Below are positions 13,017 to 57,602 of a stretch of DNA of 64,000 bases, piece after piece. The stretch lies in assembly GCA_963845185.1 (NCBI GenBank), contig CAWJRG010000005.1, positions 160,001 through 224,000 on the forward strand, given 5' to 3'. A program made the translations under genes and the position numbers. Source of the stretch: an uncultured bacterium. GTDB taxonomy: Bacteria > Oederibacteriota > PGYV01 > CAWJRG01. Each line of letters begins with the position of its first letter. Position 1 is the first letter of the stretch. The notes beneath the pieces were generated by a model that ran no database searches, had not been told where the DNA came from, and saw only the letters and a program-made list of their open reading frames with translations.

Positions 13017-13105
13017 AACTTTGCCTCCTGCTTTCTATGTTTTTATATATATCTGTATTCCTGTTTCTTCCTTCTTTTTAGACAACTTTAAACCAAAAAA
13101 GTTCC
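11085..13105. repeat. ~2.0-kb near-identical direct repeat, copy 1 (copy 2 at 18798-20818, offset 7713)
   Basis: Covers the 5' UTR, signal peptide, GH8 and first CBM; only scattered substitutions between copies. Confidence 0.92.
13078..13105 (-). promoter_or_regulatory. ECF (RpoE-like) promoter upstream of GH8 gene 1
   Basis: GGAACT-TTTTTGGTTTAAAGTT-GTCTAA, 16-nt spacer, matching the GGAACT/GTCnAA ECF consensus. Confidence 0.65.
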
Positions 13106-13436: not shown

Positions 13437-16400
13437 TTACTTTAATATAATAATCTTGTCTATCTTGGACCTTACCTTTACTCCGCCTTTTTCCGCAATT
13501 ACCACGTAGTAATATGAGCCTTCGCTGAGGTCTTTAAGGTTATCATCGCTGTCGTCGCATTGCAAAACACCGCTGCTTGCTACTAGCTGCGCTGCTTTTC
13601 CATCAAATGTATGCTGCTTTATCAGCCTGTAAGATGCTGTATATATCTTAAGCGTTATTTTCTCTACGTCGCTTGGCGTTATGTTAACCTTAATTTTCAA
13701 AGGCTGTATTACCGGATTAATTGGGTTCGGATAAGGCAAAGGCGGTCCTACTGTCACTCCTGTTGCCAGCGGTGTCGCCGTATATGTCGGTGTCGCTGTA
13801 ATCGTAGGTGTCTGTGTCATAGTCGCTGGCGAGCATGAGAATGTGTTGCTCGTTGCCGGCGCGCTTGTATCGGTCACTCCGTCAACCGCATCCGTGCCGC
13901 TTGCCGTATCGTTAAATGTTACAGTTGTGCCTGGCCCGGATGTCACTTGGTATACCCATGTAAATGACGCTTGTGCACCTGCGCCTATCGCAGTTGCAGC
14001 CGGCGCGCTTCCCTGCAGAGTAACTGACCCTGTGCTGCCTGCCGTTAATGCCGGCGCTGACGGCACCACGTTATTTGCTGTGTTTGTACCGTTATTTTTC
14101 ACCTGTATCACTACCGTTATAATCTGGCCTTGTCCGCCGCTTGAAGGCGATATCGTTATGTTGTTTATTACAAGGTTTATCGCTATGGTCGGCGTTACTG
14201 TCGGCGTATTTGTCGCTGTATTAACTGGCGTGTTCGTCGCTGTCGCGCATGTGAATGTGTTGCTGGATATTGATCCGGTTGTCAAAACCACCCCGTCAAC
14301 CGCGTCTGTGCCGCTTACTGTCCCGCTGAATGTTATATTGCTGCATATTACAACATTATACACCCATGTAAACGAGGTTTGTGAATTCCCGTTTATTGTC
14401 GTATTTGCAGGGATTGGCCCGCTTACCAGCGTGGCTGCTCCTCCGCCGGATTGCGACAATGCTGACGGTGCCACGTTATTAGCAGCGTTACCGCCTGTGT
14501 TTACAACCAGCATAACTACAGTTATGTTCTGGCCGCTCGCAGCGCTTGCCGGTGATATTGTCAAACTTGTTATAAAGTTAATAGCTATTGTCGGTGTTGC
14601 TGTCGGCGTGTTTGTCGGCGTGCTTGTCACTGTCGCTGTCGCGCACGTGAATGTGTTGCTCGATGATGAGCCGCTGGTCATGCCGACTCCGTCCACAGCG
14701 TCGGTACCGCTTACAGTCCCGCTGAATGTTATATTGCCGCATGTTATTACAGTATATACCCATGTGAAAGATGTTTGCGCACCACTTCCGCCTAATGTCG
14801 CGCTTGCAGGGCTTGGCCCGCTTACCAGCGTAGTTGCTCCTGCGCCTGATTGCGACAACACTGACGGCGCTACGTTATCCGCTGTGTTTGCGTCTGTATT
14901 TTGCACCTGCATCACAACTGTAATATTCTGTCCAACAGCAACGCTTGCCGGCGATATCGTTATGCTGTTTATTACAAGGTTTATATCTATCGTCGGCGTT
15001 ACTGTCGGCGTGTCTGTCTTTGTAGAACCAAGCGGCACCGGTGTATCTGTTATGGTAATTGTATAAGTCGGCGTCCATGTTGGTGTCACTGTCAATGTCC
15101 GCGTTTCTGTCAATGTTGATGTTTCTGTTACACTAGGCGTCCCTGTAGGTGTAGCTGTCAATGTCCGTGTATCTGTTGATGTCGGCGTTGATGTTTCTGT
15201 TGACGTTGGCGTCCTCGTCGGCGTATTAGTACCTGTTGCGGTCAGTGTCGGTGTATTTGTCGCTGTATTTGCCAGCGTGCTTGTCGCTGAAACCACAGGC
15301 GTGAATGTCACAGTAGGAACGATGCAGTATATCTCAAAGTTGTCTATCCATAGTGTTACGCTTGCCTGCGGCGCTGCTGTCGTCTGGAATTGTATATCTT
15401 TTGCGTTTTGCAATACTGTGTTCAATGGCACTGCTGTTCCCCATCCTGCCTGTTTGAAAGACGTGAATGGTATTGTTATAAGCGTCCATCCTGCCGGCGC
15501 TGTAAACGTTGCTGCGTAACTATCGTACCCGTCAAGCTCGGTACCGCTTGAGTTCGTGTACGGTATCTTTATTTCATATGTCGCTCCGTCTCCCTTTGTT
15601 TCGAACCTTATACCTACCGCTCCGCTTATATCGGTTACCTGATATGTCGGTGACCCTGCTTTTCCGTTTAACTGCATTCCCATTCCTATGTATCCGCCTG
15701 CTGCCGCTACAGACCCTGTCATAAGAGCCGCGCAGTCCGCTCCTCCGCTAAACCCGGGCGAACTCATTGCAAACGCAGTCCCTGTCACTGGCCATTCTGT
15801 CGATGCTGCGTCATCAAATGTGTACCAGTAACCGCCCCATGCGTCCTGATTGCTGCAACTTGCCATTGTATCAACCTGGCATACGGGTTGAGGCGTATTT
15901 GTTGGTGTAGGCCCTGTAGTAGGCGTATCCGTCGCTGTTGCCCCGCAGCCGTATATAGTAAAGTTGTCTATCCATAAATCTACGCTCGCCTGCGGCGATG
16001 CTACTGTCTGGAATTGTACCTCTTTCGCGTTTTGTAATACTGTAAGCAACGCTACCGCTGTTCCCCATCCTGCCTGTTTCAATGATGAGAACGGCACTGT
16101 TACCAAAGTCCAGCCTGCCGGCGCTGTAAACGTTGCTGCGTAACTATCGTATCCGTCAAGCTCGGTACCGCTTGAGTTCGTGTACGGTATTTTTATTTCA
16201 TATGTCCCTCCGTCTCCCTTTGTATAGAAGCTTATCCCTATTGCTCCGCTCAAGTCTGTTACCTGATATGTCGGGGACCCTGCGTTCGCGTTCAGCTGCA
16301 TCCCCATTCCTATCTGGCCGCCTGCATCAACTGTACCAGTTATTTGCGCCGCGCAGTCCGCGCCTCCGTCATATCCGCCCGTACTCATTACAAACGCACC

Positions 16401-19400
16401 TGCTCCTGATGGCCATACCGTCGATCCAGCGTCGTTATACGTGTACCAGTAACCGCCCCATGCGTCCTGGTTACTGCAATTTACCATTTTATCCGTCTGG
16501 CACAGGGAGGTTGGCACTATTGACGTGTATGTCGCTGTCGGCACGAATACAGTTGATGTAAATGTCGCTGTATTGACCGGCGTGTCTGTATATGTAATAG
16601 GCGCCGTATTTGTAAGCGTCGCTGTATCGGACGGTGTATCTGTCTTTGTATTCACCGGCGTAGCCGTATACGTAAATGTCGATGTATTGGTTGACGTTAC
16701 AGTTCTGGAAGGAGTTCCTGTGTATGTTGGCGTAATCGTAGCTGATATTATCACTACAGTATAAGTCATAGTTATTGTGTATGTCGGCGTATTTGTTCCT
16801 GTATATGTAGCTGTAATTGTCCTTGTTCCTGTCGGTGTTGCTGTAATTGATGGTGTAGTTGTCTGGGTGAAAGACGACGTTGCCACGGGCGTGTTTGTCG
16901 ATGTATTCACCGGCGTGTTTGTCCACGTCAAAGTAACTGTGTATGTTGGCGTGTTTGTCGCTGTATTTGTCCTTGTTACTGTCGGCGATACTGTATATGT
17001 TGGAGTAATTGTTGCTGATACTATTATTGTTGTAAATGTCATTGTTATTGTGTATGTAGGTGTCGGCGTATTTGTCGGCGTATTTGTCAGCGTATTTGTC
17101 GGCGTATTTGTGCCTGTGTTTGTCCTTGTCACCGTAAGCGAAGGCGTCCCTGTGTTTGTAAATGTAGGCGCAGTCGTGTTTGTTCCTGTCGCTGTTAAAG
17201 TTGCAGTGTTCTGTTGCGTGCTTGTCCACGTAAGAGTTACTGTGTATGTAGGAGTATTTGTTGCCGTATTTGTCCTCGTTGCTGTTGATGACGGCGTGTT
17301 TGTCGGCGATATGGTGTATGTAGGAGTAATCGTCGCTGAAATTATCACTACTGTAAAAGTCATTGTTATTGTGTATGTCGGAGTCTGCGTGCCTGTCGGT
17401 GTATTTGTCGGTGTATTTGTGCCTGTATTTGTCCTTGTCGCCGTAAGCGAAGGCGTCCCCGTCGACGTTAAAGTTGCAGTGTTCTGTAATGTATTTGTCC
17501 ACGTTAAAGTAACTGTATATGTCGGCGTGTTTGTCGCTGTGTTTGTCCTTGTTCCTGTAGACGTCGGCGTGCTTGTCCCTGTCGATGTTAAAGTCACTGT
17601 GTTCTGAGGTGTGCTTGTCCACGTAAGAGTTACTGTATATGTAGGAGTATTTGTTGCCGTATTTGTCCTCGTTCCCGTAAATGTCGGTGTGTTTGTTACT
17701 GTAATTGTCGGCGATACCGTGTATGTAGGAGTAATAGTAGCTGATATTATCACTACTGTAAAAGTCATCGTTATCGTGTATGTTGGCGTCTGCGTGCCTG
17801 TCGGTGAGTTTGTCGGCGTATTTGTGCCTGTGTTTGTCCTTGTAGCCGTAAACGTAGGCGTACCTGTAGGTGTGCCCGTAGGTGTACTTGTCGGCGTATC
17901 TGAGACTGTATTCACCGGTGTGTTTGTCAATGTCAGGGTATATGTATATGTATACGTAAATGTCCTTGTAAAAGTGAACGAAGGAGTAATTGATGGGGTG
18001 TTTGTAGCTGTATTCACCGGCGTGTTTGTCCACGTCAAAGTTACTGTATATGTGTATGTAGACGTATATGTAGGCGTATTTGTTCCTGTATTTGTCCTTG
18101 TTGCTGTAAGCGTTGGCGTATTTGTAACCGTATTTGCCGGCGTGTTTGTCCACGTCAGAGTTACTGTATATGTATATGTCGGCGTATCTGTAGGCGTATT
18201 TGTCCCTGTATTTGTCCTTGTCGCTGTACTTGACATCGATGGTGATTGCGTAGGCGTGTTTGTTAATGTATTCGCCGGCGTGTTTGTCCACGTCAAAGTT
18301 ACTGTATATGTATATGTAAACGTATCTGTAGGCGTATTTATCCCTGTGTTTGTCCTTGTTGCTGTAAGCGTAGACGTATTTGTAGGTGTATTTGTCGAAG
18401 TATATGTCGCTGTATTTACCGGCGTATTTGTGGCTGTATTCACCGGTGTATTTGTCCACGTCAAAGTTAATGTATATGTAGACGTGCGTGTACTTGTTAT
18501 CGTAGGCGTAACCGTCACTGATGGCGTACTTGTCACTGTAGATGTTAAAGTTATTGTGTTCTGTGGCGTGTTTGTCCATGTTAGAGTTACTGTATATGTA
18601 GACGTATTTGTACCTGTATTTGTCCTTGTCGCTGTAGACGTAGGTGTGGCCGTGCTTGTATATGTAGGCGTATTTGTACCTGTGTTTGTCCTTGTCGCCG
18701 TAAACGTAGACGTAGGCGTTGACGTATATGTGCTCGTACTGGGTAACGGCGTATTTGTTATTGTCGGTGAAGGTGTTGGAGTTATTGTCATTGTAGGTAT
18801 TGCAGGCGGCGGCGTCAGTGTCGGCGTTACTGTCTTCGTATTTATCGGCGTAGGCGTCCATCCCAGGCTTGGATAGAATCCTACATCGTCTATTGATAAA
18901 TCTACTGCATGCCCGTAATCATACGTCTGCCAGTTTATCTGCAGCAGATGCTGCAATACCAGCGTCAAACTTACTTTTGTACCCCACCCTGTTTCCTGCG
19001 TCAGGTCTGAAAATGGTATCTGCATCTGCGTCCACGTGGTCGGCGGTATAAATGTATATTTGAAGTCGTTATACCCTGTGTTTGTTACTGAGTTCGGCAT
19101 AAACCTCAGGCTGTACTGGTGCGTCCCGTCTCCTTTTATCGCCATTACAAATCCGCTGAATGCGCTTACATCCCTTGTCGTGGATGTTACCCTGTCTACG
19201 TTTGTCCCTAATCCAACGCACGGATAATATATAGTCCCTGTACATGCAGAATTGTTGCAACTGGTCGAACAGTATGTCGTGTATACATATCCCGTTATCC
19301 TGGCGCAATATGCCGTACCATACGGGCTGCCTGGCCAACCTGGCGCTGTCATTACAAACGTTGTCTGTGCCTTCGGCCACACTGTCGTTGTATCATTCGC

Positions 19401-20729
19401 GCATCCTGTCGTACCATAATACGAGTACCATGCGCCTCCCCAGTTATTTATTGCATCCCCGTCTTCAAATGTATCCAGCAATGCCGCCGACGGCGTCTGC
19501 GTTATTGTCGGCGTAAATGTCGGCGTTCCTCCCTGTAAATTTAATAAGTTCCAATAATTCCCTGTCATCAACAGAAGCGATAATATCTGCCATGAGTCGT
19601 TATAATATGAATTCGGCGCAAAACTCCCTGTCTCTGTGCAGTAATTATTTAACGTTGTCTGGTAACCATTATAATTCCTCATAAACGAACATCCTATCGG
19701 GCCGGTGAAGCATGCGTTGTGATTGGTTCCTGTCACGGCCCCGCTTGATACTACATAGCCGTCCTCTATTGCCGTGGCTGCTATTGTGTTAAAGTGTACG
19801 GATATATACTGCAGCTCTGTCGCTGAGTCTACTCCATTCCATGTATAATATAACTCGAACCTCCATGGCACCCTGCATGAATTATATAAATAATCCAGCC
19901 CATTGCATGAGCCGTTTCCTCCGCTGTTGCACGGGTCTCCGTTCTCAACTGCTCCGTTTGCCAGGCATGAATCTCCTATTAGCCCGTTTGCCGTGCTACG
20001 GCATCCTCCTCCTGCCCATGTCGTCATTGCTGTTAACACAGCGTTCCATTTTGCAGAATTTGTCGTGTCTATGTTTGCCCATTCTGCGTAATATGCCGGA
20101 TCCCAGTATGACGGATAATACCATGTGTTCCATTGGTCCCCCGGATTTACTGCCGACGTGCTTGAATCTATGTCGTGTGACAATACATACCCTTCCTCTG
20201 TCATTGCCGTCGCTCTTATGTTTGTATCATCTACTCCAGGTGTCGGGCCAAACTGCCGCGCCGCCATCAAAACTGAAAACGCTATGTCTTCGTCCGCGTC
20301 TGTCGCTGAATCTGCAGGGCTTGCTTTATTGCTTCCATCTGAATTCAGGTTCCATACCATTAGAGTGTTTGAGTCCAGATGCAACTGCATATAACTCCAT
20401 AAATTGTTGTATAATGCCGCGTCATTAAAATATACCGCCATCAACATACCGTATCCCATTCCTTCTGATACCGTGTCATTGCTCTGGTCCGGCCTCTCTA
20501 CTCTATCGTATCCGGATGCCGCCACAACGTAATGCGTCTTCCACGTGTTGTACAGATTCAGCAGGTTTGAGTTGCTGTAACTTGTCGAGTATATGCCGTA
20601 TGTATATGCCTTGCTTAATGGAAATGGAAAGTTGGCGTTTGTCTGTGTGATTATGTTTGCGCCAAATACCCCGCTGCTCAGAATGATTATAAAAAGGATC
20701 GCAATTGCCGTTATTTTTCTTATTTTCAT
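13437..20729 (-). CDS. Multimodular secreted GH8 paralogue (2430 aa): GH8, CBM11-like, ~790-aa Thr stalk, 2x CBM11-like, 3x Ig-like, T9SS-like CTD
   Basis: First ~640 aa essentially identical to 7317..13016; PYPNP...KIIILK tail. Confidence 0.88.
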
Positions 20730-20818
20730 AACTTTGCCTCCCGCTTTCTATGTTTTTATATATATCGATATTCCTATTTCTTCCTTCTTTTTAGACAACT
20801 TCTCCCCAAAAAAGTTCC
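18798..20818. repeat. ~2.0-kb near-identical direct repeat, copy 2
   Basis: Matches 11085-13105. Confidence 0.92.
20791..20818 (-). promoter_or_regulatory. ECF (RpoE-like) promoter upstream of GH8 gene 2
   Basis: GGAACT-TTTTTGGGGAGAAGTT-GTCTAA; hexamers identical to 13078-13105 while the spacer has diverged. Confidence 0.65.
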
Positions 20819-20866: not shown

Positions 20867-21184
20867 GGTATTTTATTATCTTGTATATGCTATAAATAAG
20901 CAGAAAAAGGCTGTTTTTCTTTGTATAATAACATTATCAACAATTTAAATAAATTTACCTATAAGATAGTTAATGAGAATTAAAATCCGGAATAATTTTA
21001 CCCTTATTCGCGCTCACAAACAGATTTTCGATTCATATTCCCTTTTTTGTCTTCCAGCATCTTTCCTGTCTTTCGTATCACTTTTAAATCACAAATTTTA
21101 AATTGTCAATGCAATCTCAGAAACTGTTTTTTGCTGGGTAAAATAGGATAATTTTCGGCGTGATAAATGCATTATAAAAAAAAT

Positions 21185-22158
21185 TTATCTTTTTACTACT
21201 ATATAACCTTTAACAACCCTGCTCCCTATCTGCATATATACAAAATATACATCATTTGCAACTGCTGCATTACTGTCATTTCTTCCGTACCAATAAGCTT
21301 CATAATATCCCGGGTCTCATCCTGGTCCATCAATACACTTACTGGCCTCATTGCTTTGTCATATATAATCACTTTAACCCTTGCATTTTCCTCAACCTTA
21401 ACCCTGATTATTGCCGCATCCATTTTCGACGGATTAATAACATTGTTTCCCACTATTGCTTTTTGCTGCTCAAGCAAACAACCATACGGGCAATTTTTGC
21501 CCTTGTCATTGTTATCGGCGGCTGTCACTTTTGAATCTGTTGACGAAACACTGCCTTGCATCCGGTTTACCGCATAAGCCTGTTGCGCAGGTTTATTAAC
21601 TGCCTGGCTGTTAACTGCAATATTATCACCGCCGCTGTTATTATTTATCGCTGCTGCCTGGACTTCCTTTTTTTCCGCAACAACTTTATTGTTTATTTCC
21701 TGCTTAATTTCCTGTTTTGCCGGTTCTTTCATCATTGCCTGCACAACAGGTTTTATTTTTTTGTTGTTAACAGCCGTAACTGATTTATGCTCCACCTTCT
21801 TTTCAACAAAATTAATCTTTTCATTTATATTATTTAAAGGCATCTGCATAATGAATACTGCGATTATTAGAATTACTGCAAAACTGACCGCGTAATTAAA
21901 TACAGGGAAAATGCTTAAGCCGGGTTTTTCTATTCCTGTAATATTGGCCATTATTTTGCCCTCTATATAATAGGGCACATCCACTGGCAAAGAATTCATT
22001 AGTTTCCTGTATTTCTGCATATCGGAGTAGTAATTTCGGCATTCGGAACATTCAGCTTTATGCTTATTTAATACTCCGTAATCTTCAATTTCTGCTCCGT
22101 TTTCCAGGTCTTTCATTATCATCTCTCGGTACTTTTTGCATTCCTTCCTGACTTTCAT
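21185..22158 (-). CDS. Zinc-finger (ZAS-type) transmembrane anti-sigma factor with C-terminal FlgD/CTD-like domain; single-base frameshift near 21310
   Basis: HxxxCxxC (HKAECSEC); one TM helix; adding one C in ACCCGGG gives ...DETPGYYEAYWYGRNDSNAAVANDVYFVYMQIGSRVVKGYIVVKR* ending at 21185; immediately downstream of the ECF sigma gene. Confidence 0.75.
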
Positions 22159-22189
22159 TTAATTTCACCTTCCTTATTCTTACAAATTA

Positions 22190-22217
22190 TATGACAAACC
22201 AAACTGAAAAAAGTTTC
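22190..22217 (-). promoter_or_regulatory. ECF-type promoter between the sigma and anti-sigma genes
   Basis: GAAACT-TTTTTCAGTTTGGTTT-GTCATA, 16-nt spacer, same architecture as the two GH8 promoters. Confidence 0.55.
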
Positions 22218-22225
22218 GCTATATT

Positions 22226-22801
22226 TTAAAAAATTTCATCTTTTTTTAACATATCCCTAAGATTATCTCTGGCCCTGAATAATTTGCTTTTTACAGCTGA
22301 TACTGATAATTTCATTATTTTTGAGATATCCTCGTAAGAAAGAGCATTTATATCCCGCATTATTAAAATGTTTTTCTGCTCGCTTGTAAGTTCGCTTATT
22401 CTTTTATATATCATCTTTCTCTTTTCGTTGGTGATTAAAATCGAATCGGGCTTTTTCTCTTCCTTGTCTTTTATTTCTAACTGTTTATTTATCTCTTCAT
22501 CGCCAGGGTAAATGTCGTCCATTATAGGCGCGCGTTGCCTTTGAAGCTGTTTTATTTTATTTTTGCATACATTTACAGTTATCCGGTAAATCCATGTGCT
22601 GATTTTGGATTCGCCCCTGAAACTTTTTATATTGTTATATACATTTAAGAATATTTCCTGGGTTGCGTCCTCTGCGTCCTGCTGATTTCTAAGGTATGTA
22701 TAAGAGTGATTATATACCACCCTCTTATAAGTTTGGATTATTTCCCTGAAAGCATTCGTGTCTCCTTTTTTAATTTTTTTAATTATTTCTTTCTCATCCA
22801 T
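22226..22801 (-). CDS. ECF sigma-70 factor (RpoE/SigW-like)
   Basis: Region 2 DAEDATQEIF...STWIYRITVN; region 4 LSYEDISKIMKLSVSAVKSKLFRAR. Confidence 0.93.
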   Translation of the reverse strand: MDEKEIIKKIKKGDTNAFREIIQTYKRVVYNHSYTYLRNQQDAEDATQEIFLNVYNNIKSFRGESKISTWIYRITVNVCKNKIKQLQRQRAPIMDDIYPGDEEINKQLEIKDKEEKKPDSILITNEKRKMIYKRISELTSEQKNILIMRDINALSYEDISKIMKLSVSAVKSKLFRARDNLRDMLKKDEIF

Positions 22802-22879
22802 TTATACTCTCCGTTTTTACCATGCTGTTATAATATATAGAAAATATGCCCTAAAAATGTTTCTAAACTATATGCATCT

Positions 22880-23806
22880 TTAAAATTCCGCCTTGATTGT
22901 AATCCTATGTTCATTATCCGATATAAAAAACGGCTTATAAGCGTAATCAAGCGTAAAATACTGCCAGTTAATTCCTAAGCCTACGGCCAAATTTCCTTCA
23001 TCCCCGCCCAGAACATAACCATACCTGAATGTAAGAAAGTTTAAATATTTTACTTCCAACCCCAGGGCCGTTTCCGCGCTTTCAGCCTCATTAAGATAAA
23101 ATCTTTCTTCGATATAAAGTGAAGCACTGTATTGATCCCTGTTGCTGTATATCAGCATGCCGTAACCGCCCCTTGCCAAAATCGGTAAAAGTATCTTATC
23201 CTGCCAGTACTCGCTTGTTATCCCTATATTTTCAAGCAAAAGTCCCAGGTTGTAATTCCTTTCCTGATTTTTGTATAATAAACCTATATTACAGCTTGCT
23301 CCTAAAGTTTGATTAGTATAAAGCATGCTGCGCAGTAATTTAAGATTTATCCCGGCGGATATATTGCCTGTCAGGTCATTCGCGTACATTGCGCCTAAGA
23401 CCATATCTGAATTATCAATGTTTCCAATGGGATTGCCAAATTGATCCGTCTTTGCCAGCTGGTCGTTCGCGTCATACATGAATGAAAACCCGATTGCGCC
23501 GTAATTTTCCTGCGGCTGGAGATACATTATCTGCTCGTAATGCGTGCTGAAAACAGAAACATAATTGGAAAAAATTGCGTATTTGTTTTTTATACCAGCG
23601 AGCGCAGCCGGGTCGACATCAGCTGCCCCAGGCTCCGCGTAATAAGGCGTATATATCCCTCCCAATGCCGTTTCCCTTGCAGGAATATCCACAAGTAAAA
23701 ATGACGATGCTGTTTCCCCTGCGGCATATAACTTATAATACATTGCTAAAGAAAAAAAAATAAAAAAGCAAAATATATATATGTTTTTCCCGTTTACCTT
23801 TTGCAT
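22880..23806 (-). CDS. PorV/PorQ-like (UPF0164) outer-membrane beta-barrel
   Basis: SFLLVDIPARETALGG N-terminal motif, DPAALA, C-terminal DYAY...HRITIKAEF. Confidence 0.75.
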   Translation of the reverse strand: MQKVNGKNIYIFCFFIFFSLAMYYKLYAAGETASSFLLVDIPARETALGGIYTPYYAEPGAADVDPAALAGIKNKYAIFSNYVSVFSTHYEQIMYLQPQENYGAIGFSFMYDANDQLAKTDQFGNPIGNIDNSDMVLGAMYANDLTGNISAGINLKLLRSMLYTNQTLGASCNIGLLYKNQERNYNLGLLLENIGITSEYWQDKILLPILARGGYGMLIYSNRDQYSASLYIEERFYLNEAESAETALGLEVKYLNFLTFRYGYVLGGDEGNLAVGLGINWQYFTLDYAYKPFFISDNEHRITIKAEF

Positions 23807-23815
23807 TTTACATCT

Positions 23816-24814
23816 TTATGCAGAGTCTCTTATAATCAAAGTGGGTTCAAATGTAATTACCCTGCTAGTGTCGCTGGATTTTTTTTCAATGATATTTAAT
23901 AGCATATCCAACGCCTGCATTCCCATTTCCGCTATAGGCTGTTTTATTGTAGTTAAAGCCGGTGTTGTAAGGGTTGCCATGTATAAATCATCGAAACCCA
24001 CAAGCGACATGTCATCGGGTATCCTGATATTATGCGCCTTGGCTTCGGCCATTATACCCATAGCGCAAACATCTCCTGCAGCAGAAAAAACCGCATCAAT
24101 TTTCCTTCCGTCATTAACAATCTTTCGCATTACTTCCTTGCCTTCCTCAAAAGAATAATGAATAATTCTAATTATATTATCCTCATTTACCTGCATGCCG
24201 TTATCACGAAGCGCTTTTTCATATCCTGCCTGCCTCTCGTAGGCATTGGCAGCGACTTTTTGGCCTAAAACTATCGCTATATTTTTACGGCCTTTCTTAA
24301 TAAGATAATCTGTCGCGATATATCCGCCCTTTTCATTATCAACTTTAACGCAAGGCGCTCCTTCAGTCACCTGCTCGATAAGCACAACAGGCATTTCCTG
24401 ATTTTTAAACTCATCAATAAGATGTTTGTCAAAAGTGGCAGTCATGCTTAAGACCCCGTCTACCCTTCTCTCATAGAATATCTTTTTCAAAATTTCCCTT
24501 TCATTTTCAGCCGAACCGCGAGTGGAATACAGGCTCAAATTATATTTTGTATCGCTAAGCCGCTGTTCCACGCCTTTTACAAGTTCAAGCGAAAAGACAG
24601 ATGCAAAAGAGGTTGCTACCAGGCATATATTTTCCGTCTTGCCCATAACCAGGCTTCTTCCTATATAATTAGGATGATAGTTCATTTCCTGTATGGCTTT
24701 TAGAACTTTTTCCCTGGTTGCTTCGCTTATCTTTTTATTGTTATTTATTACCATGGAAACAGTGGCAGCCGTAACCCCTACTTTGCTCGCTATGTCTTTG
24801 ATTGTTACCCTCAT
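23816..24814 (-). CDS. LacI-family transcriptional regulator
   Basis: TIKDIASKVGVTAATVS HTH; IPDDMSLVGFDD...PALTTI sugar-binding domain. Confidence 0.95.
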   Translation of the reverse strand: MRVTIKDIASKVGVTAATVSMVINNNKKISEATREKVLKAIQEMNYHPNYIGRSLVMGKTENICLVATSFASVFSLELVKGVEQRLSDTKYNLSLYSTRGSAENEREILKKIFYERRVDGVLSMTATFDKHLIDEFKNQEMPVVLIEQVTEGAPCVKVDNEKGGYIATDYLIKKGRKNIAIVLGQKVAANAYERQAGYEKALRDNGMQVNEDNIIRIIHYSFEEGKEVMRKIVNDGRKIDAVFSAAGDVCAMGIMAEAKAHNIRIPDDMSLVGFDDLYMATLTTPALTTIKQPIAEMGMQALDMLLNIIEKKSSDTSRVITFEPTLIIRDSA

Positions 24815-24930: not shown

Positions 24931-26349
24931 CTATTTTTGCTGTTGCTGTTGTCCGGCTGCAGGCGTCTGTTGCTGCTGTTGCCCTGCTGCAGGAACTTGT
25001 TGTTGCTGTTCCTGTCCCTGTTGCACCCCTAAATCCGCGCCCGATTTAATACGGTCAATAAAATTCTTGAGCTGCAGATTTGTCGGATCGCATTCCAGTG
25101 CTTTGTTATATGCCTGCATGGCAAGGTCATTTTTCCCGGTATTTAAAAAACACGCGCCAATGCCTATATAAGCCGATGAGTAATTCCTGTTTCTTTTCAA
25201 GCACTCCTTGAATTGATCCATGGCCTCAGAATACTTTCTATCAGAGAGAAACGTGTATCCTTTTTTGTAATATTCTTTTGCCAGGGCAACATCCTCTTGC
25301 TGAGTTCCTTGAAAAATTCCGAACATCATTCCCGAGACTGATATTCTGTGTGCCAGGCCCAAATCGCCGTAAGGTGTTAATGAGTAATCTACATCAAAGC
25401 TCATATCCTTGATTGCAGTCAGTTTATATCCCACCCCGCCGGTAAAACCGTTCAGTCCGCCAAGGTCGTAGCCGAATTTATACCCACCCCTTAAGGCTAC
25501 CGTATGGTATTTGTTCAATACCCAGTATTTTTCAACTCCGACATTCAGCCTTGCAAGCTCTTCCTCCGGATAATAAATCACGTCAATATCCGCGGCTGCA
25601 TTGTTGTCTAATAATTTAAAATATCCTTCGTCTGTAAACGGCAACATAATATTTTCAAGCGCAAATCTGTAACCAATGCCAAACCTTATGGTAAGCGGAA
25701 GATCAGGCCTGTTGGTAGACACCCCGAAATTTTGCACGCTTATACCCAAAGAATAATTTTCATATTTCGGCTTGTAATAGGCATCCAGGCTTACGGCAAA
25801 CCCGCCTCCCTGGTCCGTGTATATCTGGTCGTTTAATATGCTTGTGCTTATTCCAAGTGATAAATCCGACAAAAATGAGTTATCACCCAAAAAATCCGAC
25901 AACTTTTTTGCAAAAGCTAAATCAATGTCCATATCCGACGCATTTGCTTTTTCGTTGGTCGCTACATAATTTCCCTTAGAGTCTTCGCTTGTCACGTCGA
26001 CACTGCCGTATAAAAAAATTCCGGATAACTCCACTGTTCCAATACCTGTAATAGGCAAGGCATAAGCTCCGTACTCATCGTTTACATCCAGCAGCCATGC
26101 CGTGTGCATAAGGCAAAAATTATTCTGCGTGAGCTGGGTCAGTCCTGCTGCGTTCCAGTATATGGCGTTTACGTCATCCGCAATTCCTGTAAATGCTTCG
26201 CCCATGCCGCACTGTCTCGCGCCTTCAGGAATTTTTGTGAAATTCTCGCTTGTTACTCCTGCGCCTTCAGGGAAAATTGAGGAGGTAAAGAAAAAAGATA
26301 TTAACAACGTTGGTAAAATAAATAAAATAATTTTTTTCATATTTTTCAA
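24931..26349 (-). CDS. PorV/PorQ-like beta-barrel with C-terminal TPR repeats and Gln-rich tail
   Basis: GARQCGMGEAFTGIADDVNAIYWNAAGL motif; DYSLTPYGDLGLAHRIS; TPR helices; QQQQ tail. Confidence 0.8.
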   Translation of the reverse strand: MKNMKKIILFILPTLLISFFFTSSIFPEGAGVTSENFTKIPEGARQCGMGEAFTGIADDVNAIYWNAAGLTQLTQNNFCLMHTAWLLDVNDEYGAYALPITGIGTVELSGIFLYGSVDVTSEDSKGNYVATNEKANASDMDIDLAFAKKLSDFLGDNSFLSDLSLGISTSILNDQIYTDQGGGFAVSLDAYYKPKYENYSLGISVQNFGVSTNRPDLPLTIRFGIGYRFALENIMLPFTDEGYFKLLDNNAAADIDVIYYPEEELARLNVGVEKYWVLNKYHTVALRGGYKFGYDLGGLNGFTGGVGYKLTAIKDMSFDVDYSLTPYGDLGLAHRISVSGMMFGIFQGTQQEDVALAKEYYKKGYTFLSDRKYSEAMDQFKECLKRNRNYSSAYIGIGACFLNTGKNDLAMQAYNKALECDPTNLQLKNFIDRIKSGADLGVQQGQEQQQQVPAAGQQQQQTPAAGQQQQQK

Positions 26350-26380
26350 TCTCCCTTCGTTAATAAATATTCTTATTTAA

Positions 26381-26409
26381 ATTTTATCAAATTAATCGAT
26401 TAAAATCAA
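26381..26409 (-). promoter_or_regulatory. Sigma70-type promoter with a LacI-like operator
   Basis: TTGATT-N17-TAAAAT; perfect palindrome TTAATCGATTAA (central CG) at 26392-26403. Confidence 0.55.
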
Positions 26410-26484
26410 GTTCTGTTTGTTTATTTTTTTTAACTATATTTTATCCCTAATAATCAACAAATAATATAAATCCTCTTCCACGAA

Positions 26485-55889: not shown

Positions 55890-57602
55890 ATGGCTGATAT
55901 TCTTTTTAAAGGAACAAAAGTAAAAGCACTGTTTTTTATATTACTTATACTTATCCCTTTGGCAGGCGTGCGTGCAAATAATCTTTCATTTTTAAATGAT
56001 ATAAATATTCGTAATTCCGGCGCGTCCGGCTCGCTCGCGCCATTTTCATCCGATGCTTCTTGTGCTTTTGTAAACCCTGCATGCCTTGCTTTTACTCAGG
56101 AGCAGGAAATACGCCTGCTTTATTATAACCTGTTTGCAGGCAGTTCGATAAGTTCCGTATCTTATGCATATCCCTTACTTAACGCAGGGTCCGTTTCCAT
56201 ATCGGGCGTATTCCAGAATACCCCTTCCATTGAGGAAAGAAACGCCTTTAATGAAATAACAGGCAGTTTTTCAGATTCTTATAAGGCCGTTTATTTGTCT
56301 TATGGTATCTCGCTTAATTCTTTTTTAAGCGCCGGTGCGAATATTAAATATATAAACCACGATTTTTATAATTCGGGTTACTCTGCGGGCGGTGTTGATG
56401 CCGGGCTTGTTTTATCCTTGCCCTATAATTTAATGCTGTCTGCGCTTTCTGAAAATATCGTAAAACCCGAATTTCAGTATTCCTCTACAAGCGGTGATTC
56501 GCTGCCCTTATATTTTGATTTCACTCTGGGCGACTCGTTCTCTTTTTTCAGCAGCCTTAATGATTCTTTAAAAGTCGGCATAGGCGTTGTAAAGGAGGAA
56601 TGGCAGGACATTTATTTCCATTACGGCGCGGAATATTCTATATATAATATTTTCTTCCTGAGGGCCGGGATTTCTTTAAACAGCTTTTCTTTTGGCGCCT
56701 GCCTGAATCTTAACGGCGCCGGAATTGATTACGCTTATGTGTCAACTGCCCTCGATTTTGTGCACAGGTTTTCAATCTCCTATTCTTTCGGAGAAAACAT
56801 CAGGGCAATGGAAGCCGGCCTCAGGACAAAAGAGGAAAAACTAAAATATGAAATGATACAGGAAATCAAACAGAAAAATATAGATGACTTTATGAAACAG
56901 GCCGATGACAGTATTAAAACCGGCGACTTCGATTCTGCTAAAGCAACGGTTGAAAAAGCCCTTGTTTGGGACCCCAACAACTCCTGGTTTAAGGATAAGC
57001 TCAATGAAATAAATAACCTTGACAAAGAACGGGATATAAAAAGCCTTTCTGACGAAGCCGATGCGCTCATGAATGATAAATTATATATTGACGCCATGGT
57101 AAAGTTGAAAAGCCTTTTTGACCTCGACCCGAATAATACATCCGCTAAGGAAAAATACGACTACGCGGAAACGGTTGTCACAAAACTAGGCGAAGAAAAC
57201 CTTACTGTTGAAGAAAAAAACAAACAGGAAATAAAAACACATTTCGACAGCGGTATATCTTATTATGCGTCGGGAAGTTACGAAAAGGCCGTAGAAGAAT
57301 GGGACAAGGTAATTGACGCCTCTCCTATGCAAAGGCAGGTTTACAACTTCATCAAAACCGCCGAGGAAAAAGTTCGGAAAAAAGAAGAAGTAAAACAAAC
57401 CGCCGAGCAGGAAAAAGCGCAAAAAATAAACATGCTCTACAATAAAGCCGTGCTCTTATATACGCAGGGCAATTTTGAGGAATCAATAAATACATGGAAG
57501 GAACTGCTTACACTTGACCCTGAAAACAAGGAAGCAAAGGAATACCTTGAAAAGATTAAGGAAGAATATATCAAAGTACAGAAACAAAACCTTCAGTGGT
57601 AG
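55890..57602 (+). CDS. PorV-like beta-barrel fused to C-terminal TPR repeats
   Basis: DASCAFVNPACL motif; DYAY...HRFSISYSFG; TPR helices (LDPENKEAKEYL). Confidence 0.72.
   Translation: MADILFKGTKVKALFFILLILIPLAGVRANNLSFLNDINIRNSGASGSLAPFSSDASCAFVNPACLAFTQEQEIRLLYYNLFAGSSISSVSYAYPLLNAGSVSISGVFQNTPSIEERNAFNEITGSFSDSYKAVYLSYGISLNSFLSAGANIKYINHDFYNSGYSAGGVDAGLVLSLPYNLMLSALSENIVKPEFQYSSTSGDSLPLYFDFTLGDSFSFFSSLNDSLKVGIGVVKEEWQDIYFHYGAEYSIYNIFFLRAGISLNSFSFGACLNLNGAGIDYAYVSTALDFVHRFSISYSFGENIRAMEAGLRTKEEKLKYEMIQEIKQKNIDDFMKQADDSIKTGDFDSAKATVEKALVWDPNNSWFKDKLNEINNLDKERDIKSLSDEADALMNDKLYIDAMVKLKSLFDLDPNNTSAKEKYDYAETVVTKLGEENLTVEEKNKQEIKTHFDSGISYYASGSYEKAVEEWDKVIDASPMQRQVYNFIKTAEEKVRKKEEVKQTAEQEKAQKINMLYNKAVLLYTQGNFEESINTWKELLTLDPENKEAKEYLEKIKEEYIKVQKQNLQW

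Follow-up and report, generated by a model that had tools for sequence, protein, structure and literature searches.

An anti-sigma factor with a sorting-domain-like tail, encoded beside PorV-family barrels in a candidate bacterial phylum

Pairs of extracytoplasmic function (ECF) sigma factors and anti-sigma factors are a major form of envelope sensing in bacteria, and for many groups the input is unknown. In the FecA-FecR-FecI system, and in the Bacteroides systems built of an ECF sigma factor, an anti-sigma factor and a SusC-like protein, the periplasmic end of the anti-sigma factor contacts an outer-membrane barrel. FlgM is a soluble protein that is exported whole via the flagellar type III system, and the RsgI sensors of cellulolytic clostridia carry carbohydrate-binding modules and work in a Gram-positive envelope. 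Here we describe an anti-sigma factor gene in a stretch of 64,000 nucleotides (hereafter the window) of contig CAWJRG010000005.1, from an uncultured bacterium of the candidate phylum Oederibacteriota (assembly GCA_963845185.1). Its product ends in a domain related to type IX secretion system (T9SS) sorting domains, and its gene stands close to genes for barrels of the PorV family, the carriers that read such signals. It would be a form of trans-envelope ECF signalling with an unusual input module, and its family is conserved across the order and has relatives across the phylum. We put at about even the chances that the protein serves as the anti-sigma partner in an ECF pair whose signal crosses the envelope via a dedicated PorV-like outer-membrane barrel.

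The locus shares with FecA-FecR-FecI and SusC-like signalling the three-gene logic of ECF sigma factor, single-pass anti-sigma factor and outer-membrane barrel. The barrel, however, is of the FadL/PorV family and not a TonB-dependent transducer, the head is a zinc-binding anti-sigma (ZAS) domain and the tail is sorting-like; Pfam scans of the locus proteins gave no FecR or TonB-receptor family, and the likeness is one of logic only. As with FlgM and sigma 28, the fate of the anti-sigma factor is here proposed to be coupled to a secretion apparatus, although FlgM lacks a membrane anchor, a zinc finger and an outer-membrane partner. RsgI-SigI offers another parallel, namely a membrane anti-sigma factor in a polysaccharide degrader with an outer sensor borrowed from the modules of secreted enzymes, but at the present locus an export tag would be the module borrowed, in an envelope with an outer membrane.

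Among published systems the closest in concept is PorA-PorY/PorX-SigP of Porphyromonas gingivalis. There, the PorA sorting domain is reported to bind the kinase PorY and to raise SigP-dependent expression of the T9SS, and PorA tethered to the inner membrane still signals (PMC12152298). In both systems a sorting domain would act as a periplasmic signalling element with control of an ECF sigma factor as its output. PorA is a separate small cargo protein acting on a histidine kinase. At the present locus the anti-sigma factor itself carries the sorting-like domain as a fusion, and a private PorV-like barrel is its genetic partner, in a host outside the Bacteroidota. In our literature search, with subscription journals largely outside its reach, no paper described an anti-sigma factor bearing a sorting domain or sigma-linked PorV-like genes; in the Goldbacteria paper (PMC7031533) type IX secretion appears in the reference list only. 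An earlier reading of the window from its letters alone (the original prediction) knew of no description of its idea. That stands for the architecture and less so for the idea at large, since the PorA sorting domain is reported to activate PorY-PorX-SigP (PMC12152298).

The anti-sigma gene was dissected with the help of P0002, a protein of 322 residues that is 53% identical to the window protein and is its only close relative among 5.8 billion clustered proteins. The gene and its parts are listed below in window coordinates.

21185..22158, minus strand: anti-sigma factor gene in two frames, an open reading frame (ORF) at 21226-22158 plus a tail frame at 21185-21313.
22039..22140, minus strand: cytoplasmic ZAS motif C7-x25-H33-x3-C37-x2-C40, as read from the ORF sequence.
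21844..21915, minus strand: single transmembrane helix, residues ~82-105 (helix 81-102 in the P0002 model).
21490..21843, minus strand: disordered, low-complexity periplasmic tether rich in A, K, V, P and E (P0002 residues 109-213 have a predicted local distance difference test score, pLDDT, below 50).
21185..21489, minus strand: immunoglobulin (Ig)-like C-terminal domain, homologous to type A-like T9SS sorting domains and FlgD_ig, split by the frame break.
21309..21314, minus strand: frame break in a CCCGGG run, one base short relative to intact relatives by comparison with P0002 (...NQDETPGYYEF...).

The order of ZAS finger, transmembrane helix and long linker ahead of the tail had been read off the letters before, and all three elements were seen again here. 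Two sets of orthologues were used, alignment A1 with 19 sequences from an exhaustive HMMER search and alignment A3 with 20 sequences translated from related genomes. A word-index protein search was too coarse for this family, giving 2 proteins with a single query and 6 with an alignment, while HMMER and the genome search were productive. Residues H/C/C of the H-x3-C-x2-C motif are invariant in A1, with a C or H upstream, and all four of C/H/C/C are invariant in A3. The zf-HC2 model (PF13490) matches 15 of the 19 orthologues at E ≤ 0.01 (best 2e-9) and the NCBIfam model antisig_RsrA matches 18; the window copy itself reaches 12.8 bits on zf-HC2 (E=0.13, cut-off 22.2). Among 90 family sequences (protein ids plus locus ORFs, partly redundant), every one has the hydrophobic window, and the tether runs from 78 to 168 residues with a median of 118. 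By arithmetic, such a tether, extended at ~0.36 nm per residue, is long enough to cross the periplasm. AlphaFold2, run on P0002 with an alignment, gave a head with pLDDT of 76-92 (means of 10-residue blocks) and a tail at ~95. Our confidence in the anatomy of the protein, as in the gene linkage given below, is high.

The last ~100 residues are strongly conserved among the orthologues and in P0002 form a seven-strand sandwich (residues 232-320 of 322 in the AlphaFold2 model). FlgD_ig (PF13860) is the closest Pfam model, matching 17 of the 19 orthologues at E ≤ 0.01 with a best value of 1e-6, and CHU_C matches six of the tails weakly. At E ≤ 1e-3, a profile built from anti-sigma tails alone matched 91 ORFs in the genome that holds the window. 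The best match ends at most 25 residues from the C-terminus in 85 of these, usually large proteins, and the matches include 66 of the genome's 88 matches to TIGR04183, the model for type A sorting domains. Furthermore, when 38 anti-sigma tails were compared by hhalign with 56 of the genome's cargo C-termini, those coinciding with TIGR04183 matches, the probability was 99.6% (E 6.7e-25, 91 columns). Structure comparison of the tail with VIA-align ranked the sorting domain of PorU first (6za2, Z 10.1, root-mean-square deviation 2.3, 89 residues aligned), followed among others by PorZ (5m11, Z 9.1), FlgD (Z 8.5) and the NucA signal in 8glk (Z 7.9), with many rows, including other Ig-like folds, within 1-2 Z of the top. 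By sequence comparison, the tail is a diverged member of the domain family of this genome's T9SS-like sorting domains. The original prediction that the tail follows the FlgD/sorting-domain pattern of cargo proteins in the window is borne out, for the cargo C-termini of the genome, by the tail profile and hhalign, and the observation is confirmed as real and more than chance. Two outcomes had been named as speaking against it, a tail without likeness to sorting or FlgD domains and homologues mainly in genomes without such cargo and barrels; the tail has that likeness, and the homologues are not so distributed.

Two other identities for the protein were considered and rejected. We do not class it as a cargo protein, because it starts with a cytoplasmic anti-sigma head and a membrane anchor and not like a Sec-exported, releasable protein. 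Nor is it a FlgD hook-cap protein, since the Ig part alone matches and the neighbours are sigma factor, PorV-like, LacI and GH8 genes, not flagellar ones.

The genes around the anti-sigma factor, together with a paralogue elsewhere in the window's genome, are as follows.

22226..22801, minus strand: ECF sigma factor (Sigma70_r2 1.1e-17, Sigma70_r4_2 1.4e-14; TIGR02937 93 bits, cut-off 42.9).
22880..23806, minus strand: PorV/PorQ-family outer-membrane barrel, here PorV1, the proposed partner of the tail (NF033709 111.1 bits).
23816..24814, minus strand: LacI-family regulator inside the probable operon, kept in 19 of 20 orthologous loci.
24931..26349, minus strand: second PorV/PorQ-family barrel, with C-terminal TPR repeats (NF033709 129.1 bits, TPR_1 1.8e-12).
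13437..20729, minus strand: secreted GH8 + CBM11/CIA30 protein of 2430 residues (Glyco_hydro_8 3.2e-35, CBM_11 1.5e-15).
Contig C10, 234130-235119: anti-sigma factor of a second family, between an ECF sigma gene and a PorV-like barrel, followed by 3-4 cargo genes.

The order PorV-like/TPR barrel, (LacI), PorV1, ECF sigma factor, anti-sigma factor was found in all 20 orthologous loci, which come from 20 genomes of nine families (f2-f6, f8, f10 and others). Downstream of the anti-sigma gene, 19 of these loci have the GH8 gene, and the twentieth stops at a contig end. Gaps among the first five genes are mostly below 30 nucleotides, and a sigma-70-like promoter (TTGATTT-N17-TAAAAT) is conserved upstream of the first barrel (window 26350-26484); together these suggest that the genes probably form one operon. 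AACGTT-type palindromes were seen near the operon promoter in some relatives. The highly conserved LacI gene between the barrel genes, with the promoter and palindromes, hints at sugar-responsive repression layered over the ECF switch.

A second, paralogous anti-sigma family has the same architecture at ~20-27% identity; its member on contig C10 is listed above. Among 20 more distant loci, sampled across the order and the phylum, all 20 have an ECF sigma factor followed by an anti-sigma factor with tail; 16 have a PorV-like barrel no more than two genes away, and one further locus stops at a contig end. The cassette of sigma factor, anti-sigma factor with sorting domain and PorV-like barrel thus exists in two paralogous families across the order and phylum. 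A related-locus search of genome contigs returned one spurious match of 12 residues only. Some leads with scores below 0.9 came from protein clusters, with CHU_C in clusters of Bacteroidota and zf-HC2 in one of Ignavibacteriota; they suggest that classical T9SS phyla may have the fusion as well.

The original prediction had proposed that the tail be modelled with the barrels at 22880 and 24931. For the first of these, this was run on the orthologous pair of genome G004, the barrel (residues 25-302) being folded with alignment A2 and the tail (residues 216-324) with alignment A3. The runs reached ipSAE interface scores of 0.89, 0.88 and 0.89, and none of three controls exceeded 0.01; because PorV-signal complexes have already been solved (8glk and others), such a score may reflect likeness to them and not the pair's own affinity. 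The runs have at least 89% of their contacts in common, with partner pLDDT of at least 89. Of 157 solved complexes 116 attain the mark used for such scores, as do 2 of 215 mismatched pairs; these counts are rough owing to custom alignments. On the barrel, the predicted interface takes in residues 79-83 and 107-120 among others and aligns next to N87 and F115 of Flavobacterium johnsoniae PorV; an invariant lysine of the tail (K316 in A3) falls within the predicted interface. In substrate-bound translocons, according to Lauber 2024 (PMC10994853), the backbone of PorV N87 and F115 bonds the conserved lysine of type A signals, and the signal lies within the SprA pore, on PorV loops that enter by the lateral opening. 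A tethered signal could therefore reach the barrel from the periplasmic mouth of a SprA-like pore. The tail is predicted by the model to dock on barrel loops equivalent to those gripping cargo signals in the Flavobacterium SprA translocon, and we hold binding of tail and barrel, as modelled, with moderate confidence. Compared with type A cargo domains bound to PorV in SprA (8glk), the tail has the same Ig-like sandwich at the extreme C-terminus, an invariant lysine near the end and a predicted docking site on the equivalent loops. Unlike such cargo, the anti-sigma factor has an inner-membrane anchor and a cytoplasmic N-terminus and would be released only if cut.

These data bear on a plainer explanation, which we judge quite improbable. 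Here the tail would be an Ig-like sensor, recruited by domain shuffling from a fold abundant in this genome, that binds glycan, peptidoglycan or a periplasmic protein, and the PorV-like genes would merely be co-regulated export parts. Such a role would suit the generic fold, an Ig-like sandwich that Foldseek does not distinguish from FlgD, macroglobulin or Fn3-like domains, and also the setting, a polysaccharide-degradation locus with LacI and GH8-CBM11 genes. Against this, the sequence pattern of sorting domains is complete in the tail, down to the extreme C-terminal strand and an invariant lysine. A barrel gene is adjacent in 36 of 40 loci (20/20 and 16/20), in comparison with ~37 barrels in the 3.5-Mb genome, and the complex model scored 0.89 versus 0.01 for controls.

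Both window barrels pass the cut-off of 90 of the PorV/PorQ family model NF033709, as had been expected of the two PorV-like genes beyond the sigma gene. On the equivalog models the barrels at 22880-23806 and 24931-26349 fall short, with 41.8 and 41.4 bits for PorV (cut-off 250) and 83.4 and 51.4 bits for PorQ (cut-off 220), so they are members of the family and not orthologues of PorV or PorQ. The sole solved relative is F. johnsoniae PorV (E 8.2e-13). The window's genome holds ~37 PorV-family matches, 29 of them above cut-off, often adjoining cargo genes, and all 41 sampled genomes of the phylum have between 8 and 40. Many barrels stand beside sorting-domain genes, as if cargo operons bring their own carriers. 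A further barrel of this PorV/PorQ expansion was noted in the window at 56010-56789.

In a quick maximum-likelihood IQ-TREE analysis of 80 barrels, the PorV1 orthologues form one clade (21 rows, SH-aLRT 100) and the barrels of the paralogous cassettes another (15 rows, SH-aLRT 97). All 23 other barrels of the window's genome fall, with the TPR-bearing ones, in a third group (SH-aLRT 94). Barrels entered the tree if at least 200 positions matched a PorV1-based profile at E ≤ 1e-10, a filter passed by 26 ORFs of the window's genome, as against 37 PorV_fam matches at E ≤ 1e-10. The sigma-linked barrels are thus dedicated lineages, passed on along with their anti-sigma genes.

The original prediction had gone on to cast the protein as a membrane-tethered decoy cargo that reports engagement or idleness of the export machinery and frees the ECF sigma factor to transcribe cargo genes. 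In such a gauge of secretion load the tail would compete with cargo for the general translocon or carrier, so that an idle machine engages the tail and the sigma factor is released, or the reverse. We think this unlikely, although parts of it stood. The tail is homologous to ~85 cargo sorting domains, the protein is tethered and linked to PorV-like barrels, and its predicted docking is on the canonical cargo-binding loops. The tail of the C10 paralogue is closest to the sorting domains of its own operon's cargo, which take ranks 2-4 of 85. A gauge of this kind would couple export capacity and cargo synthesis in an FlgM-like feedback, and in P. gingivalis the PorA sorting domain is reported to feed back on T9SS gene expression (PMC12152298). 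The part that did not find support is the reporting of engagement or idleness of the export machinery. The barrels linked to the anti-sigma genes form separate conserved lineages of their own and not the cargo-linked ones, which fits a private partner better than a gauge of shared machinery. Moreover, the window's own cargo, the GH8 protein, has another class of C-terminal domain, and no link was found between this sigma factor and cargo promoters, nor any conserved ECF-type promoter ahead of the orthologous cargo genes.

Under signalling via a dedicated barrel, the sequence of events may run as follows. The ZAS head would hold the ECF sigma factor, the tether would let the tail reach the periplasmic mouth of a SprA-like pore, and the tail would bind the loops of its private barrel. 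An altered contact between tail and barrel would then alter the stability of the anti-sigma factor, probably by regulated proteolysis. Three triggers are candidates: real cargo signals competing for the barrel, as suggested by the likeness of the C10 tail to cargo domains; extraction of the barrel from the translocon, which would pull on the tether; and a ligand or event at the barrel's surface. Once freed, the sigma factor would direct transcription of genes for the envelope or for cargo, among which the adjacent GH8 glycanase is a candidate by position. More speculatively, and in our view with little likelihood, PorV-family carriers may have been co-opted as signal transducers, the tail being threaded into a SprA-like pore and gripped like cargo by its private barrel until energy-dependent extraction of that barrel pulls the tether. 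The pair would then be a force or flux sensor that turns secretion activity or surface events into ECF transcription.

Several results weigh against signalling via a dedicated barrel. Its steps of binding, proteolysis and transcription are postulated here from sequences and models, and the docking score is open to the explanation by likeness given above. The kinship of the tail is uneven at the level of family models: P0002 reaches 22.8 bits on FlgD_ig, below the gathering score of 27, and TIGR04183 matches the tail of one orthologue in 19 (E 0.0014), neither piece of the window protein at E ≤ 1 and P0002 not at E ≤ 10, so that most anti-sigma tails are missed by it, unlike type A cargo domains. 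Foldseek against the PDB gave generic Ig-like matches only, at E ~1e-4, and did not separate FlgD from a sorting domain. No barrel lies within ~4 kb in 3 of the 20 distant loci, and the GH8 cargo differs from the anti-sigma tail in the class of its C-terminal domain. Of the parts of a canonical T9SS, family models found no GldL, GldM or PorU sortase body in the window's genome, and SprA only below cut-off. The GldL and GldM models gave no match in the control genomes either. Lastly, no ECF-type promoter is conserved upstream of orthologous cargo genes, and the operon itself seems driven by a promoter of sigma-70-like type.

The frame break needs separate consideration. The minus-strand ORF at 21226-22158 encodes 310 residues. 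Its conserved part ends with the stretch ...VKVIIYDKAMRPVSVLMDQDET, after which come 28 residues without counterpart in relatives. The tail goes on in the second frame as PGYYEAYWYGRNDSNAAVANDVYFVYMQIGSRVVKGYIVVKR, with its stop at 21185. P0002 carries both parts in a single frame, and comparison with it places the lost base as one C of the minus-strand C-run (plus-strand GGG, 21312-21314); the one-nucleotide deletion first proposed at ~21310 was therefore right. Past the break, 42 codons are still open, with 68% identity to P0002. Of 23 genomes of the same order, 21 have a full-length orthologue in one ORF, the other two, G006 and G008, being fragmented assemblies with partial matches, and a match in two pieces occurs solely in the window's genome (contig C5, 181310-182158 and 181188-181319). 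Programmed frameshifting was rejected, given that there is no in-frame X XXY YYZ heptamer and that the 21 relatives encode the protein in one frame. In the same genome, a PorV-like barrel gene (C9:136588-137387) and a cargo gene (C10:229870-233015) also appear split between frames.

In this assembly the one-base loss takes away the last strands of the C-terminal domain. It is possible, if on balance somewhat doubtful, that the window's gene is a recent pseudogene, with its switch dead or locked, or, alternatively, that the frameshift is a homopolymer assembly error. A real break agrees with the assembly as given, which is one base short, and the intact state of 21 of the 23 relatives would make the loss lineage-specific. 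An assembly error, or a very recent event, would account for a break that falls within a C/G run and is followed by 42 open, conserved codons. The other two or more split-looking genes named above count on the same side, since they bear on whether the assembly carries homopolymer errors. Three public read runs were found, each holding a small share of the stretch; their contigs on 20900-22900 cover 20903-21144, 22214-22383 and 22544-22694, and none covers 21168-22172. If the frameshift is real, the protein would be without its last strands, which hold many of the predicted barrel contacts. An intact last beta strand is reported as a requirement for PorA signalling in P. gingivalis (PMC12152298).

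The output of the putative switch was sought in promoter sequences, two of which in the window are nearly identical.

20791..20818, minus strand: ECF-type promoter-like motif GGAACTT-N16-GTCTAA, 63 nucleotides upstream of the 2430-residue GH8 gene.
13078..13105, minus strand: near-identical copy of the motif, 63 nucleotides upstream of an ORF of 1899 residues.

The pair reads GGAACTTTTTTGG...AAGTTGTCTAA. Genome-wide, a loose form of the pattern gave 19 matches compared with 13 in reversed/complement controls, which is a weak signal, barely enriched. Similar motifs were seen ahead of several cargo, PorV-like and small regulator-sized ORFs elsewhere in the genome. What the upstream regions of orthologous cargo genes share is only a sigma-70-like GACAA...TATA, in 8 of 16 sequences (shuffles gave up to 7). 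Our confidence in the direction and target of the signal is low. The GH8 protein, which has Thr/Pro linkers and a divergent, sorting-like C-terminal domain, is by position a candidate for the regulated cargo. Over its Thr/Pro-rich linker, at 16489-18876, long antisense or off-frame ORFs of 790 and 421 residues occur on both strands and are almost certainly artefacts of repetitive composition.

The secretion machinery of the window's genome was surveyed with family models for SprA, PorU, GldK, GldL and GldM. A 2148-residue ORF (C9:182882-186208) has four collinear SprA matches, all below cut-off. PorU was matched only via its sorting domain, and its catalytic part was not found with the family model. 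Matches to GldK were all below cut-off and of a kind also seen in control genomes without a T9SS. Taken together, these results point to a T9SS-like apparatus that is reduced or divergent. A second class of C-terminal domain (...PYPNPINP...LSEGSYYYV...KIIILK) was observed at 13437-13740, on the 2430-residue protein, and at C10:219000-219300. It is missed by TIGR04183 at E ≤ 1 and by the tail profile, and is found on GH8 orthologues in 9 of the 20 loci. It is possibly a separate class of sorting signal with its own carrier. Pairs of cognate signal and carrier genes are known for type B signals and PorP/SprF proteins (PMC12618676).

What sets this family apart is that its input module is a secretion signal and that the likely partner comes from the carrier family that reads such signals. 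If signalling via a dedicated barrel is true, sorting domains and PorV-like barrels would gain a second role in signalling, and the single precedent, PorA, would be carried over to a direct fusion. A handle would also be gained on T9SS-like export in a little-studied, cellulose-degrading candidate phylum, in which the motor and sortase went unrecognised in the window's genome, the sole one searched. Furthermore, the compact cassette of three genes (sigma factor, anti-sigma factor and barrel) would lend itself to the study of signal-carrier recognition and its specificity. Should the reading as a force or flux sensor hold as well, TonB-dependent cell-surface signalling would have its T9SS counterpart in this cassette, with many copies across the candidate phylum.

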